Assembly (NCBI GenBank): GCA_044352465.1
Contig: JBILDU010000081.1
Span: 1 to 14,111, forward strand
From: Bdellovibrionota bacterium
Lineage (GTDB): Bacteria > Bdellovibrionota_C > UBA2361
Direction of reading: 5' to 3'
Length of the DNA stretch: 14,111 bases
The translations under genes were made by a program, and so were the position numbers. Of this stretch, positions 5,254 through 14,111 are shown piece by piece. Within the stretch, counting starts at the first letter, position 1; the number at the start of each line of letters is the position of its first letter. Below the pieces are notes generated by a model, which had not been told where the DNA came from, made no database searches, and was given only the letters and a program-made list of their open reading frames with translations.

Positions 5254-6324
5254 GTGGTGGGGCGCTGGGGGCTCCAGGTCGCCACGTTCCTTCTCGTTGC
5301 CGGAAGCTCCGTGTTCGCCGCTCCGCGTGAGCTGTGCGTTTACGTCTCGCGGAGCGGTAACGTGGAGCAGGTAAATTCAATCGAGCAGGTGCCGAGCGAT
5401 TATCGGGCTACGGCGCGATGTTTTACCGAGGCGATAAACCCTGAGCGACCGCAGAGTCCGACGAGGCCTCGTCCAATCCGCATCACTGAAGGTGGCCGTG
5501 TCGTGGGGGGCGAGAATCTCGCCTCCCCCGATACGTTGACGCTCGAGGGGGCGAGCCGGCGGGTTGATATGCCCTCAACGCTGGGGCGAATTCAACTACG
5601 CTGGCCCCGCGAGGTTGAAGCCCTCTTTGGTCGAACGCCCGAGCGTGCGGTCGCTGAGGCTGCCCGTGCCGTGAGTCGAGCCTTGAAGGCAGGCGCCTTC
5701 CCACCTCCGGTGCAGCGCCTCAATCTCGATTGGCGAATCGTCTTTATGGATGAGGCGAGGCCGGACGGTCAGATCCCAGCGGCGCTCGTCAGCAACTGCC
5801 ATCCCGGATGGATGGTGCCGCCCACCGACATCTACATCGTCGCTCAACGGGTCGCTGCGGGTTGTGGTGGGGGGGCGCCGGTCTCGCCGAGCACCGCCGA
5901 TGCTGCACTGACGAAGGTTTTAATCCACGAGATCGGTCATGCTGTTGAGTACCAGCTTCTGGGGGGCGAGTTTGGCCGCAGTCGGATGCGGGCTGAGGGT
6001 TTCGCGACTTGGTTTACCGGGTATGCTGCCGATTACAGCGCCCTACTCGAGCGCGGAAGCGTTGCAGCGGAGTATGCCCGTCGTGCCCGAGCGACGTTTA
6101 AAGAGACCTCTTTGGATGGACCGTTTCGCGGATCCGCGGACGACTACGCTCGCGCGAGTATTATCTTTTCAGCTCTCGTGGAGCGGCGCGGTATCCGCGG
6201 TCTCTTGCACCTCTATGAGGGGATGACGGTCAATAAGCTCGATCTCTTTCCGGCGCTTGAGGCCCGCATCGGTTGGGACGAGGCTAAAGTACGCGCCGAG
6301 ATGGAACGCCTTCTGCCGCAGTGA
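5254..6324 (+). CDS. Exported putative zinc metallopeptidase (HExxH...E, gluzincin/peptidase MA-like)
   Basis: Signal-peptide-like N-terminus (…SSVFA), LIHEIGHAVE followed by RAEGFATWF; GTG start immediately follows the lon stop. Confidence 0.7.
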   Translation: MVGRWGLQVATFLLVAGSSVFAAPRELCVYVSRSGNVEQVNSIEQVPSDYRATARCFTEAINPERPQSPTRPRPIRITEGGRVVGGENLASPDTLTLEGASRRVDMPSTLGRIQLRWPREVEALFGRTPERAVAEAARAVSRALKAGAFPPPVQRLNLDWRIVFMDEARPDGQIPAALVSNCHPGWMVPPTDIYIVAQRVAAGCGGGAPVSPSTADAALTKVLIHEIGHAVEYQLLGGEFGRSRMRAEGFATWFTGYAADYSALLERGSVAAEYARRARATFKETSLDGPFRGSADDYARASIIFSALVERRGIRGLLHLYEGMTVNKLDLFPALEARIGWDEAKVRAEMERLLPQ

Positions 6325-6348: not shown

Positions 6349-7185
6349 TCACTGAAGGGTTGGCGATTGTTTGGCGAGCATCGCTGCAAACTCGGCGAAG
6401 AGCCTTTCCCCAACCTTCCCATGATACCCGATGAGCTGAAAAGCTCTTATGACGTCGTGGTTCAGCTCCGGATTTCGGGCGGCGGCGTTAAACAATTCGT
6501 ACACCAGCAAAGGCGACATCGGTACGCCGAGCGAAAGTCGCCCCATGTTCGACTGAATCGCTGCCATCTCGGTGATGAGGATGCGGAATAGGTTCGGCTC
6601 GTCTGCCGCCATCCGAATGAAGGAGCGGACCGCCCACGCCGAGGCGAGGTACTCCCCCATCTCCAGGGACGGTGGAACCACGCTGTTCGGGTCAGCGCCG
6701 AATGAGAGTTCGTGCAGCGATCGATCGCTCGCCTTGGCAACGAGGTTCGACAGCGCCAGTCCCAGTCCCCGATGGAGGCGCTCTTCGCGGATGAGGTGGT
6801 GGGGGGCGTTGGCCGCTTTTCCTGAGGGCTTTAACGCTGCCAGAAGCGCTGCACGAAACTCGATCTGCGCCGCGGTCGGGATAAATTGAAGATTCGAAAA
6901 CTCCCGCGATATCTCGGTCAGGACCGCTTCTCCGCGGTGCTTCACCCCAGCGATCGGCAGGCACAAGATTCGGCTGCTCGATATGTCGTCGATAAAGTGA
7001 TCGGTGGTGGCTCCATTTGCCAGATGGTTCGAGATTCGATTCACAAACGGGAGCGCCGCACCCGTGGCGGAATCCACTTCGCTTCGAAGGTTGTCCTGAC
7101 GGTCGTAGTTGTCGCGGTAACTTCGGTTTGGCCCATCTCCTGAGCGTTCCGGCCCAGACGGGAGATAGTCAGGTTGAAAAATCAT
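6349..7185 (-). CDS. Hypothetical protein (278 aa), no family recognised
   Basis: Long ORF converging on the peptidase gene, GAGGGG just upstream of the ATG and a good sigma70 promoter upstream. Confidence 0.65.
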   Translation of the reverse strand: MIFQPDYLPSGPERSGDGPNRSYRDNYDRQDNLRSEVDSATGAALPFVNRISNHLANGATTDHFIDDISSSRILCLPIAGVKHRGEAVLTEISREFSNLQFIPTAAQIEFRAALLAALKPSGKAANAPHHLIREERLHRGLGLALSNLVAKASDRSLHELSFGADPNSVVPPSLEMGEYLASAWAVRSFIRMAADEPNLFRILITEMAAIQSNMGRLSLGVPMSPLLVYELFNAAARNPELNHDVIRAFQLIGYHGKVGERLFAEFAAMLAKQSPTLQ

Positions 7186-10585: not shown

Positions 10586-11149
10586 TCAACGCCCCTCGAA
10601 ACGGCGTAGACCGAGGAGGCCAAAGGCAGCGACAACGAGGGCATGGTTGATGGTGCCAGTGCGCACGAGGTCGAGCACCTCTGGGAGAGGTTTGACGATG
10701 ACCTCGATATCCTCGCCGGGATCAAGCATCGGGTCACCCACGCGGGAGCAGTTGCGGGCAATATAGGTGTGAAGCCTCATCGACATCATCGCGGGATTCG
10801 GGTGTATGACTCCGAGCGGTTCGAGGGTGCTTGAGCTATAGCCGGTCTCCTCACGGAGTTCACGGAGCGCTGAGATCGCTGGGTCAGGCTCGTCCGGTTC
10901 GATGCATCCTCCGGGTATCTCCAGGGTGAATTCCTCGGCGCCGTGGCGATATTGCCGCACCAAGACCACTTCGTTTGCTGCGGTGAGGGGAATGATGTTG
11001 ACCCAACTCAGCCCCTCCATAAGAAAAAAATCGAAGGGGCGCTGGGTGCGGGGATTGACCCGACGGGAGCGCTTCAAGGTGAAGATCTTGAACGCCTGAT
11101 AGATATGCTCCTCTTCGATCGTCCAGCCTGATGGGGTCTCTTTTTTCAT
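10586..11149 (-). CDS. NUDIX hydrolase (ADP-ribose pyrophosphatase-like)
   Basis: VVLVRQYRHG, LEIPGG and Nudix box GGCIEPDEPDPAISALRELREETGY; LDPGEDIEV; RBS AAGGAG upstream. Confidence 0.93.
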   Translation of the reverse strand: MKKETPSGWTIEEEHIYQAFKIFTLKRSRRVNPRTQRPFDFFLMEGLSWVNIIPLTAANEVVLVRQYRHGAEEFTLEIPGGCIEPDEPDPAISALRELREETGYSSSTLEPLGVIHPNPAMMSMRLHTYIARNCSRVGDPMLDPGEDIEVIVKPLPEVLDLVRTGTINHALVVAAFGLLGLRRFEGR

Positions 11150-11289
11150 GGAATATCGAACTCCTTTGACGGTGTAGTGTCGGCGGGGTCGCCGTTCTCT
11201 TCAAGGGGTATCAAGGCGGTGTCGTGCCCTTTGGAACGCCCCCCGAGCTTACTCCCCGTGCGGCGTCGACCGATTCGGCCACTCCGATT

Positions 11290-11340
11290 TTCCTAAACTT
11301 GGGGTCGGGAGTTCGATCCTCTCCGGGCGCACCAGTTAAG
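11290..11340 (+). repeat. att core copy 1: 3' half of tRNA-Arg(CCT) plus 6 nt (not an intact tRNA)
   Basis: TTCCTAA (anticodon loop, CCT) ACTTG GGGTC GGGAG-TTCGATC-CTCTC (T arm) CGGGCGC-A-CCA (ends 11334). Identical over 51 bp to 13510-13560. No matching 5' acceptor strand or D arm upstream. Confidence 0.9.
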
Positions 11341-11400
11341 CCTCTGAAACTATTCAGTATTTAGAGGTTTTGGACTCTCCGCCAATGTTTGAAATTCGCT

Positions 11401-11498
11401 TTTTGACACACTTTTGACACACTCTTGCCACACAGCAGTTTTTTTTCTGCTGGTGAATGTGCCCCAAATTGTCCGGTTTGACACAATTAGTGTGTCAA
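11401..11498. repeat. Putative integrase arm-type binding sites
   Basis: Three 11-bp tandem units TTTTGACACAC / TTTTGACACAC / TCTTGCCACAC (11401-11433) and palindrome TTGACACA-ATTAG-TGTGTCAA (11478-11498). Confidence 0.75.
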
Positions 11499-11513
11499 GC
11501 GCAGGGGACAGAC

Positions 11514-11708
11514 ATGGCAACGTATCGAAAGAGAGGCAACCGTCACCAAGCAGTCGTGCGTATTAACGGAATCGAAGAGTACCGGTCCTTTGATACCAAA
11601 GGAGAGGCTAAAGCCTGGGCCGAAGCCAGAGAAAGGCTTATCACAAATGCGACCGATGAGTTTATGCTTGCAGCCATAAACTACCGGGTGCGGGACACAA
11701 TCGACTAA
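11514..11708 (+). pseudogene. Truncated tyrosine integrase (N-terminal arm-binding-like domain only, 64 aa)
   Basis: MATYRKRGNRHQAVVRINGIEEYRSFDTKGEAKAWAEARE matches the N-terminus pattern of phage/IME tyrosine integrases; adjacent to att core; stops after VRDTID with no catalytic domain downstream. Confidence 0.8.
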
Positions 11709-11856
11709 CCGTTCGTGTGTCATTAACCGAGAAGGATTGCCGCTCGTGCATTTTTATTGCCACTGGTGCATTTGAGATACTTACTGTATGGACAGATCCC
11801 AGCCAGTCAAGATAGTCAACGAAAAGGCTGCTTTCCGGCATGGAGGTTCAAAAAAC

Positions 11857-12768
11857 ATGAAGACCCAAAACCGTTTCACAAGAGGTGTGTTCCTGAGCTG
11901 CATAACAGCGATACTCGTATTAGTCGGGGTGTCACGACAAGCATTAGCGGATACTGCGGATGCTAAGGGTACGCTTGATCAGACTCAAGGTGGTCAAAAC
12001 CAATCTGGCGGCAACGAAGACCCCCTAGTTCCACTACCCAGCATATTTGATTTCACAAAAGGCTCTGGGTTTGGCGGTGCTATAGGTTTAAGCGTTGAGG
12101 CAGGAAACGCTTATGACGGTTCAGACGAATACGAAATAGAGGTTCAGCCCGCGGCGGCTCTACAATGGAGAACTGGAAAAAACCTTTTTTTCTGGGAAGG
12201 GTACGAGCTTGGGCTCAGGTCTCTTGTTGCAGACCAACTGCTCCTTCAAGGAGGTGCCAGATATGAAGCGGGATTGGAGCCGGATGATTCGGACGATGGT
12301 CGACTTGATGGCATTGAGAAACGCGATGCTCACATCGTTGGGTTCCTTGAGGCCCGATACTCTATCGACTCCGAGTGGCGCAACTGGCTAGCCGCAAGGG
12401 TCATGGGTGGAGAATCGGATTTCGGTTGGCTCGGCGTTCTCGCCGCTGGGCATCGCTTTGGCACGGCACGTGATGGTTCAGGTGCTGAGGCGTATGTCTT
12501 TTCTACTTTCGGCAACTCAAACTTTATTAACAAGGACTTCGGAGTTTCTGCATCCGATGCTCAAACCTCTGGATTACAAGAAACTGATCTACATGGAGGA
12601 TACCGTTCTACCGGATTAGATGCTCTGTACCGCTTATATCTTCACAAAAACGTTCAGATGATCGCAAGTGTCGGTATCGAGTTTTACAGCGGAGATATAG
12701 GAGAGAGCCCGATTGCTAGGGATGACTATGAAACTGAAGCGGAATTGACCTTATTGTATACTTTTTAA
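11857..12768 (+). CDS. MipA/OmpV family outer-membrane beta-barrel protein (cargo)
   Basis: RBS GGAGG 11842-46 before ATG 11857; signal peptide ending ALA; GNAYDGSDEYEIEVQP, DFGVSASDAQTSGL, IGESPI motifs of MipA/OmpV; C-terminal LLYTF beta-signal. Confidence 0.88.
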   Translation: MKTQNRFTRGVFLSCITAILVLVGVSRQALADTADAKGTLDQTQGGQNQSGGNEDPLVPLPSIFDFTKGSGFGGAIGLSVEAGNAYDGSDEYEIEVQPAAALQWRTGKNLFFWEGYELGLRSLVADQLLLQGGARYEAGLEPDDSDDGRLDGIEKRDAHIVGFLEARYSIDSEWRNWLAARVMGGESDFGWLGVLAAGHRFGTARDGSGAEAYVFSTFGNSNFINKDFGVSASDAQTSGLQETDLHGGYRSTGLDALYRLYLHKNVQMIASVGIEFYSGDIGESPIARDDYETEAELTLLYTF

Positions 12769-13093
12769 ATCTCGCGCTCAGGTCATACGTAACAATAGCC
12801 TTCAAGTCTGACAGTAGGTGTGCGACACTTCTAACACTGCTCATCTCAGGCAAAGCACAGCCCGGGTTGGATTCATCTCTGAGCAGCGGGTGAGACAGTA
12901 GACCCTGGCGCAGATAGAGTGAGAGGTGCCCCTTGTGTATAAAAAGCTTTCGTTGGGGAGATAGGATGGCCCCAGACTGCTGCAAGCCGTTCATGTTTCT
13001 CTGAGCTAACCAAAAGCGAACCCCACCGACGGTTAGTTGTGGGTTTCTCCTAACCAATTCTTGAACAGTAAAGTAACCTTCAAATATCGACAT
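12716..13093 (-). CDS. Excisionase-like/winged-helix DNA-binding protein; C-terminal part possibly read-through
   Basis: RBS AGAGGG then MSIFEGYFTVQELVRRNPQLTVGGVRFWLAQRNMNGLQQSGAILSPQRKLFIHKGHLSLYL, resembling small Xis/AlpA-like proteins of integrative elements; sits near the right att, converging on int; last 53 bp overlap the 3' end of the cargo gene. Confidence 0.6.
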   Translation of the reverse strand: MSIFEGYFTVQELVRRNPQLTVGGVRFWLAQRNMNGLQQSGAILSPQRKLFIHKGHLSLYLRQGLLSHPLLRDESNPGCALPEMSSVRSVAHLLSDLKAIVTYDLSARFKKYTIRSIPLQFHSHP

Positions 13094-13214
13094 ATACCCT
13101 CTTGAGAAATGCAATGTCTCACTAGAGGCAGTATGTCCGATCAGCTGGGCGCTATGACATTACCTTATGAACTACCTCGAAGTAGCATTTGATGAACTAG
13201 ATGGACGAGGGGGA

Positions 13215-13314
13215 GGAACTTGGGGTAGCATACGCTAGTAGGACACATTTGTTCGGAACTTGGGGTCTGCCATTTTTGAAAAAAGCAGACCTCATGTTGT
13301 CCAAACTTGGGGTC
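13215..13314. repeat. Cluster of three AACTTGGGGT direct repeats (plus inverted variants) identical to part of the att core
   Basis: AACTTGGGGT at 13217, 13257 and 13304; the same 10-mer is in the att cores at 11296 and 13516. Inverted variant at 13285-13298. Confidence 0.75.
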
Positions 13315-13335
13315 ATGGTGGGTCGGGGCGCAGAG

Positions 13336-13357
13336 CTTTGACACACTTTTGACACAC
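13336..13357. repeat. Putative arm-type sites left of att core 2
   Basis: CTTTGACACAC-TTTTGACACAC, the same 11-bp unit as 11401-11422. Confidence 0.75.
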
Positions 13358-13423
13358 TTGAAATGAAATGTGTTCGTAATAAGCAGCAACGACTCGCACG
13401 AAGTCATATTTTGAAGGTAGTGT

Positions 13424-13436
13424 TAAGTCGTTGATT
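13424..13436 (-). promoter_or_regulatory. IHF-consensus binding site in the att arm
   Basis: Minus strand AATCAACGACTTA matches WATCAANNNNTTR exactly and lies between arm sites and core, as in lambda-type attP. Confidence 0.65.
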
Positions 13437-13509
13437 TAAAAGTCAAATTGGACTTTTTGGCACTAGTTAGAGTTAGTCGAAAAGAGTTATCAAACGGGTT
13501 TTGTAACGA

Positions 13510-13560
13510 TTCCTAAACTTGGGGTCGGGAGTTCGATCCTCTCCGGGCGCACCAGTTAAG
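13510..13560 (+). repeat. att core copy 2: 3' half of tRNA-Arg(CCT); junction between two tandem elements
   Basis: Identical to 11290-11340; arm repeats on both sides (13336-57 and 13623-13707); no tRNA 5' half. Confidence 0.9.
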
Positions 13561-13622
13561 TCTATGAAAATAGTTAGTAATCTGAGGTTTTGGACCGTCC
13601 TGAAAAGTTTCCAATCTATTCG

Positions 13623-13707
13623 TTGACACACTTTTGCCACAGAGCCGATTTTTTTCTGTTGGTAAATGTGTCTGGAATTGCCCGCTTTGACACAATTAGT
13701 GTGTCAA
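13623..13707. repeat. Putative arm-type sites of the second element
   Basis: TTGACACAC-TTTTGCCACAG (13623-13642) and the identical palindrome TTGACACAATTAGTGTGTCAA (13687-13707). Confidence 0.75.
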
Positions 13708-13722
13708 GAGGATAGGAAAGAC

Positions 13723-13812
13723 ATGGCAACCTATAGAAAGAGAGGCAGCCGATACCAGGCAGTCGTGCGTATTAATGGAATCGAGGAGTACCGATCCTTT
13801 GCGAGCAAGTGA
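13723..13812 (+). pseudogene. Second tyrosine integrase, 5' fragment interrupted by an IS
   Basis: MATYRKRGSRYQAVVRINGIEEYRSFASK*, nearly identical to the 11514 peptide; the stop TGA (13810-12) is the first three bases of the IS. Confidence 0.85.
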
Positions 13813-14111
13813 TGTTCCCCCCGTATCTTAGACACCTGTACGTCAATTTTGGTAAGGTGTTGGAATGAGTAAAAGATATCCGCAGGCCGTGAAGGACGAG
13901 GTTCTTGGGAAGATCCGGGGAGGTCGTAGAGTCGTTGAAGTTGCGCGGGAACACGGGATCAACGAGATGACGGTGCGGAACTGGCTTGAGCGCGACACGG
14001 CGGCTGGTGCATCCGAGATCCTTGAAACGAGCCGCCTTCGGCGCGAGAACGAGGCGCTGTTGAGGCTTGTTGGTCAACTGACGTACGAGTCGGAGCAGCA
14101 GAAAAAAAATC
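13810..14111 (+). mobile_element. IS3-family insertion sequence, left end (partial)
   Basis: Begins 5'-TG (TGATGTTCCCCCCGTATCTTAGACACC), IS3-type terminal sequence, exactly where homology to the first integrase ends; followed by an OrfA-type gene. Confidence 0.85.
13865..14111 (+). CDS. IS3-family transposase OrfA (HTH plus leucine zipper), partial
   Basis: Not in the ORF track; MSKRYPQAVKDEVLGKIRGGRRVVEVAREHGINEMTVRNWLERD...EILETSRLRRENEALLRLVGQLTYESEQQKKN; A8 run at 14102-14109. Confidence 0.88.
   Translation, partial: MSKRYPQAVKDEVLGKIRGGRRVVEVAREHGINEMTVRNWLERDTAAGASEILETSRLRRENEALLRLVGQLTYESEQQKKN

Follow-up and report, generated by a model that had tools for sequence, protein, structure and literature searches.

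The closest described systems are the CIMEs, presented in the sources cited here as deletion derivatives that retain their att sites and lack recombination and transfer genes (PMC7563491, PMC5704250). According to the same sources they span 1.2-13 kb, carry cargo and are moved by accretion with a neighbour, as in the ICESt1/ICESt3 model, and in S. salivarius they always lie farthest from the target gene (PMC7563491, PMC5704250).

Here we analyse a 2220-bp cassette contained in a stretch of 14,111 nucleotides (the window), which is the entire contig C89 of the 3.13-Mb draft genome of a Bdellovibrionota bacterium (G000; 170 contigs, 57% GC, 95% complete). Judged by its sequence, the cassette fits the known CIME class, leaving aside the ICE or IME nature of its candidate parent. 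It keeps both att sites, with identical cores and arm repeats at both ends; it appears devoid of functional recombination or transfer genes, since it holds an integrase stub, an Xis-like gene that is probably damaged and mipA as its only long ORF; and, at 2220 bp with mipA as cargo, it stands in tandem with a sister element at position 13510. An earlier note on this DNA had proposed an undescribed system. This is not borne out, as integrase-less, att-flanked units of 1.2-13 kb at one att site are what the cited parts of these reports call CIMEs (PMC7563491, PMC5704250). However, in two further copies, L032 and L033, the cassette adjoins the tRNA, whereas the S. salivarius CIMEs are reported farthest from their target, and near-identical copies are found across families of one order. 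What is unusual with respect to the known class is this spread across families, the place beside the tRNA and the excess of defective over intact copies; a new cassette system is not established by these findings. A literature search returned no title on this element, most subscription papers and supplements lying outside its scope.

Integrase-less cargo islands in tandem at one target, for which accretion was proposed, are also reported for the Dehalococcoides ssrA locus; as far as that source goes, these use serine recombinases and the tmRNA gene, whereas the cassette goes with a tyrosine integrase and a tRNA anticodon loop (PMC3146451). Prochlorococcus tycheposons are stacked at tRNAs, with partial tRNA copies between them and fragmented integrases, but they are described as encoding their own integrase and their remnants are read as degenerate, and the cassette has no replication module (10.1101/2020.12.28.424599). 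With MITEs and CALIN hitchers, as portrayed in the source consulted, it shares that the ends are kept, the enzyme is lost and a helper is needed; MITEs are there about 300 nt long, non-coding and moved by a transposase, and integron cassettes use attC and IntI (PMC11389934). The cassette is 2.2 kb long, coding and bounded by direct rather than terminal inverted repeats, so that the term MITE-like, used in the earlier note, holds as an analogy and not in its particulars. As for an integron or CALIN array, mipA stands alone in all three readable copies and the bounding repeats are tRNA-derived cores.

Organization of the cassette

The features of the cassette and of the DNA to its right are the following (window coordinates and strand).

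11290..11334 (+): left core (attL), the 3' half of tRNA-Arg(CCT), beginning with the 7-nt anticodon loop and ending in CCA
11402..11432 (+): left arm, three tandem 11-bp repeats, the third a variant; five in L032
11477..11498 (no strand): imperfect palindrome of two inverted arm-type motifs, just 5' of the integrase start
11514..11708 (+): integrase stub, 64 aa, N-terminal part only, without catalytic domain
11857..12768 (+): MipA/OmpV-family outer-membrane protein gene, 303 aa, the only cargo; alternative start at 11788
12716..13093 (-): Xis-like gene, with homology in codons 1-53 (13093-12935), beyond which unrelated DNA is likely fused on
13217..13313 (+): extra core right halves, 10 nt, three copies (13217, 13257, 13304)
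13337..13358 (+): right arm, two tandem arm-type repeats
13424..13436 (-): IHF consensus match, between the right arm repeats and the core
13510..13554 (+): right core (attP-like), junction of the cassette right end with the sister left end
13555..13809 (+): sister left end, with arm repeats, palindrome and 29 integrase codons (13723-13809)
13810..14111 (+): IS3-type insertion sequence, interrupting the sister integrase and running off the contig

As the earlier note had stated, the same 51 nt of core occur at 11290-11340 and again at 13510-13560, with 2220 bp from one start to the other. Their first 45 nt correspond to the 3' half of tRNA-Arg(CCT), from the anticodon loop to CCA, and both junctions start at the anticodon loop. 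Crossover at the anticodon loop is a known class of tRNA integration site.

The arm repeats claimed for both ends were also recovered. Arm-type 10-mers, with at most one mismatch, lie at 11402, 11413, 11477, 11490 (-), 13337, 13348, 13622, 13686 and 13699 (-), which makes nine in 2.7 kb against 0.09 expected at the genome-wide rate. Those at 11402-11432 are likely integrase arm sites. In L032 this array (1755-1806) is two 11-bp units longer than in the window, and the palindrome at 11477-11498 is identical in the sister, L032 and L033. A search of viral contigs with the arm pattern gave one match, L078 (1793-2638), where an unrelated integrase (24% identity) beside tRNA-Ser carries the same 22-nt arm repeat; the arm motif is therefore not specific to this family.

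The IHF consensus site of the earlier note has a single match in the unit, where 0.057 are expected per 2220 bp; this putative site lies to the left of the right core, at a distance of 86 bp. The motif is retained in two other genomes holding cassette ends, G107 and G108, and G000 encodes four matches to HU/IHF-family proteins. Upstream of the Xis-like gene, the extra core halves are 40 and 47 bp apart; of 11 copies genome-wide, this element holds five. The other copies of the cassette do not extend over this part. The three halves fold only weakly (z -1.85, one strand) and could be additional core-binding sites for the integrase or relics of old junctions. Promoter and terminator counts in the window were at chance level.

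The integrase is indeed cut to 64 aa. The stub matches the N-termini of the 375-aa PF00589 integrases P0002 and P0003 at 88% and 80% identity, which identifies the unit as a non-autonomous derivative of a tyrosine-integrase element and supplies the full-length enzyme, with the start MATYRKRG, that had been predicted. Three intact cognate integrases of 375 aa (P0002, P0003 and P0080) are 79-88% identical. P0002 matches PF00589 with E 7.7e-36, and its search returned 11 proteins at E<=1e-40, three of them at 79% identity or more and three at 58-59%. R224, K251, H318, R321, H344 and Y353 are invariant in six of six integrases, the close ones and the 58-59% relatives, and we take these residues to be the tyrosine-integrase catalytic motif. 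In having a PF00589 cognate integrase with R-K-H-R-H-Y residues, the cassette resembles the lambda-type att systems. That the parent family targets tRNA-Arg(CCT) follows from genome G102, where a 59%-identical integrase comes immediately after this tRNA and the layout is the same, the tRNA 3' half and the arm repeats being its own. The same core at tRNA-Arg(CCT) also bounds a 6.7-kb element in G094 (L090, C56:7672-14445), with a 31%-identical integrase and other arms; this tRNA is thus used by several integrase families. L090 carries a DUF5681 gene and a MutH-like/adenine methyltransferase pair and looks satellite-like.

G000, G107 and G108 (95, 97 and 90% complete) yielded no intact cognate integrase, and none of the 124 genomes of the class holds a full-length integrase closer than 59%. 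Viral contigs gave no matches for P0002, P0035 (a relative of the Xis-like protein), the 45-nt core or the integrase alignment, and no relative was matched on plasmids.

The interior is a single intact MipA/OmpV gene (PF06629, E 3.7e-25, open frame), as had been described, and there is no other long ORF in the unit. The GC content is 48% in the unit, with a GC3 of 0.44 in mipA, against 57% in the genome and 0.68 in lon. Window and L032 mipA are 99.0% identical, and their six synonymous and three non-synonymous changes are too few for a selection test. MipA homologues at 66-69% identity occur in seven genomes, and neither core nor tRNA was present in the 1.5-kb flanks of these loci (7/7).

The Xis-like gene of the earlier note is conserved only over its first part. 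It matches the 68-aa P0035 at 47 of 53 residues and then at one of 15, it runs to 125 aa without the stop of P0035, and it has Tyr at the otherwise invariant Trp60. The lost match and the missing stop indicate that the gene is likely damaged, and from its sequence it is likely a damaged excisionase-like gene. The L032 copy holds one stop and one frameshift. Among 1.84 billion representatives, 21 relatives were found at E<=0.001, with P0035 the closest intact one; in the cluster of 18 members, nine of the 15 listed start internally, some perhaps by an effect of gene calling. Neither Pfam nor PHROGs gives the ORF a name. The P0035 model (pLDDT 87) is a small winged helix, whose last helix is the part replaced in the cassette. 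A Foldseek search with the model returned nothing at E<=0.001; in VIA-align, five of the best eight rows were excisionases, with Z 5.1-6.2, below the guide of Z 8, and 51-63 residues superposed at rmsd 2.8-3.9. In a few distant relatives the alignment reaches residues 62-68, and the tail may be divergent and still folded. As the gene is likely dead, excision needs the Xis function to be supplied as well.

A sister is present directly downstream, as claimed, but its arms are related to those of the cassette (83-84%, one repeat fewer) and not the same. Only 300 bp of it are visible, ending in an integrase cut by the IS after 29 codons; to call it a single-gene cassette would be conjecture. Its right end and the remainder of its integrase were not found in the G000 assembly.

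Further copies and the insertion locus

A metagenome scan with the 21-nt palindrome returned two stretches, L032 and L031, and a genome scan two loci, L033 and L034. Two of these were dropped: L031, where the pattern matches by chance, and L034, a distant integrase beside tRNA-Ser. L032 is another copy of the unit, 95.8% identical over 11289-13087 and with its integrase truncated identically, at 64 aa; to the right of 13087 the similarity is lost, and only 96 bp remain before the contig end. L033, which is the same contig as G108:C3 and was counted once, agrees with the window at 96-98% in the left end and the start of mipA; its stub is 114 aa long. Both lie at an intact tRNA-Arg(CCT) behind pcm-nlpD, with the cassette adjoining the tRNA. 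G108 and G000 share an order but not a family. The right end of the G108 copy is on another contig, followed by a peptidase-family gene and not by a sister, and its middle is unassembled; the full 2220-bp unit is contiguous in the window only. G107 holds the right arm alone, the right core being lost. Cassette ends are present in three of the 124 genomes of the class, and a search of the phylum gave the same number.

The host proteins flanking L032 and L033 are 37-66% identical to their G000 orthologues and 47-75% identical between the two loci, and the same truncation occurs in hosts whose flanking genes are 37-46% identical. MetG matches were left out of this comparison as non-orthologous: MetG of G000 (G000:C133) is only 25% identical to MetG of L032 and L033, which adjoins pcm, and G000 probably has a different MetG type.

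Several observations concern the surroundings of tRNA-Arg(CCT) in these genomes. In G107 (L037, C56:1-127) the core is missing, and a 7-nt microhomology links the right arm to a tRNA-like repeat that lies inverted downstream of tRNA-Arg(CCT); the end of contig C14 (L084) shows an empty tRNA. This is possibly an element that is locked in a fraction of the population. In G094 and G107 (L087 and L074), fragments of tRNA-Arg(CCT) are followed by a repeat of about 150 bp with hairpins, at whose end the T-arm and acceptor end of the tRNA occur a second time. It is possibly a small tRNA-associated repeat of genus g11.

In the protein collection, 57 contigs carry the 13 members of the 64-aa stub cluster, with the exact stub of the window on 18, and 17 contigs carry the three members of the 114-aa stub; the MipA cluster counts 70 members, whereas the three close full-length integrases have five members, with each representative on one contig; these counts may be inflated through repeated sampling of the same habitats. 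All 13 members of the stub cluster share the junction. They differ from one another at the N-terminus, and one of them agrees with P0002 in 59 of 59 residues. Between window and L032, 12 of the 31 substitutions over 11335-12880 fall inside 31 bp of the stub (0 of 20000 simulations). The P0002-like variant and the clustered differences point to recombination with full-length relatives in the same cells. The unit would thus have been in cells with potential helpers, although this leaves room for homologous replacement too.

The earlier note had missed that no 5' tRNA half precedes 11290 and that the host tRNA-Arg(CCT) is elsewhere, empty and with another 3' half. ARAGORN found no tRNA in the window; Rfam gave no matches in 11100-14111, where it missed the tRNA halves too. 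The tRNA-Arg(CCT) of G000 itself lies on contig C95, behind pcm-nlpD, and its 3' half has only 18 nt in common with the core before it differs, whereas the tRNA 3' halves of genus g11 match the core at 93-100%. As the core is of the g11 type, its sequence makes transfer from the g11 side into G000 the likely direction.

In G001, of the same genus, a Nudix gene faces a 361-aa ORF across 189 bp, and the host side of the window is syntenic with G001. In G000 this 361-aa ORF lies on C109, 63 bp from another IS of the same family near the contig end. From this arrangement and the position of the ORF on C109, the array likely sits in that intergenic gap, a secondary, non-tRNA site. C109 holds at 35336-36709 a complete IS3-type copy (93% identical to that of the window) and then a second IS at its end. 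The 189-bp stretch of G001 was considered as an empty site, the loop heptamer being matched at six of seven positions at offset 140 (143 in G000), and dropped because neither flank stands out from shuffled sequences, of which 375 and 143 in 500 attain the score. Elsewhere in the window, two ORFs of 356 and 278 aa, at 5254-6324 (+) and 6349-7185 (-), are without Pfam match, the former with an HExxH-type motif.

Probable origin and movement of the cassette

We propose, with a probability of about 0.7, that the 2220-bp unit arose by deletion from a tyrosine-integrase element targeted to tRNA-Arg(CCT) and is likely moved by a cognate integrase that a related element supplies. Near-identical copies that share one truncation in diverged hosts argue against a one-off decayed element and indicate that the unit likely moved after the loss of its integrase. 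The mipA-carrying DNA would have replaced the interior of the parent, cutting the 3' ends of the integrase and of the convergent Xis-like gene. A full-length relative would then bind the arm repeats and recombine at the 7-nt anticodon loop, and the unit would move alone as a circle or, somewhat more probably, together with a tandem neighbour. Its landing sites are the tRNA in two genomes and, in G000, a non-tRNA site with the junction at the loop. Both tRNA-located copies (2/2) adjoin the tRNA, which hints at integration in trans. For G000, the simplest history would be that cassette and sister arrived, together or in turn, while the sister integrase was intact; the IS would have cut it later, which probably left the window copy stranded.

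In a stronger form, which we regard as tentative and would not expect to hold in full, the integrase-less cassette would be excised alone as a 2220-bp circle and carried between families of uncultured Bdellovibrionota-type bacteria. It would integrate in trans, either at tRNA-Arg or at secondary sites, becoming the newest element there, and would have multiplied far beyond its autonomous parent. It would be the equivalent of a MITE for lambda-type integrases, with mipA as the selected payload.

Homologous replacement is a rather improbable account of the same data. Autonomous elements would have integrated in each host, the stub and mipA interior being swapped in through the conserved ends, and the integrase-less unit would never move by site-specific recombination. 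Different integrase N-terminal alleles at one junction and mosaic stubs fit this equally well, and so do the single tract in which window and L032 differences cluster and the different sequence of L032 right of the Xis-like gene. However, window and L032 share 98% identity in the left arm region, and in G107 and G108 the final 141 bp ahead of the right core show 96-97% identity, which argues that ends and interior travel together. Replacement also requires an autonomous parent in every host, at odds with the lack of integrases closer than 59% in the 124 genomes.

The integron-like accretion put forward in the earlier note, in which single-gene cassettes with exchangeable cargo are stacked at one att site by an integrase in trans, appears unsupported, and we give it little credence. 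The tandem junction at 13510 speaks for it, as do the position of the unit next to the tRNA in L032 and L033, expected for the latest arrival, and truncated forms that far exceed intact ones in the protein collection. But the search of genomes and metagenomes for the predicted exchange of cargo between the same ends gave the same mipA in both other readable copies: the metagenome scan yielded this element and a chance match, none of the three genomes with the ends shows other cargo, and the sister has an IS-cut integrase.

We consider it very unlikely that these are one-off or independently decayed islands, which lost the integrase in place after arrival. Damage to both recombination genes, the different and longer stub of L033 and the missing right core of G107 would agree with decay, and the earlier note had offered a one-off decayed island as its refutation; the same unit is found in other, deeply diverged hosts, and decay in place is largely refuted by the junction and captured mipA that window and L032 share in unrelated hosts at different sites. 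An assembly or binning chimera, joining an element of a co-occurring genus to a G000 contig, might be suspected in a draft of 170 contigs with a core of the type of another family, but it is hardly credible, as the left junction, placed at the anticodon loop, shares only 8 nt with the tRNA context, too short for joining at repeats, synteny with G001 holds on the host side and the exact stub is on 18 contigs.

Islands with truncated integrases are usually annotated as dead. Under the deletion-derivative reading, the truncation shared between deeply diverged hosts indicates recent movement. The cassette is a small and fully delimited substrate with which, given a cognate integrase, movement alone in trans can be tested against movement in tandem only. 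A Pseudomonas MipA is reported, in the source cited, as a polymyxin sensor (PMC10936184). The findings also point to selection for a MipA-family protein in these uncultured bacteria.
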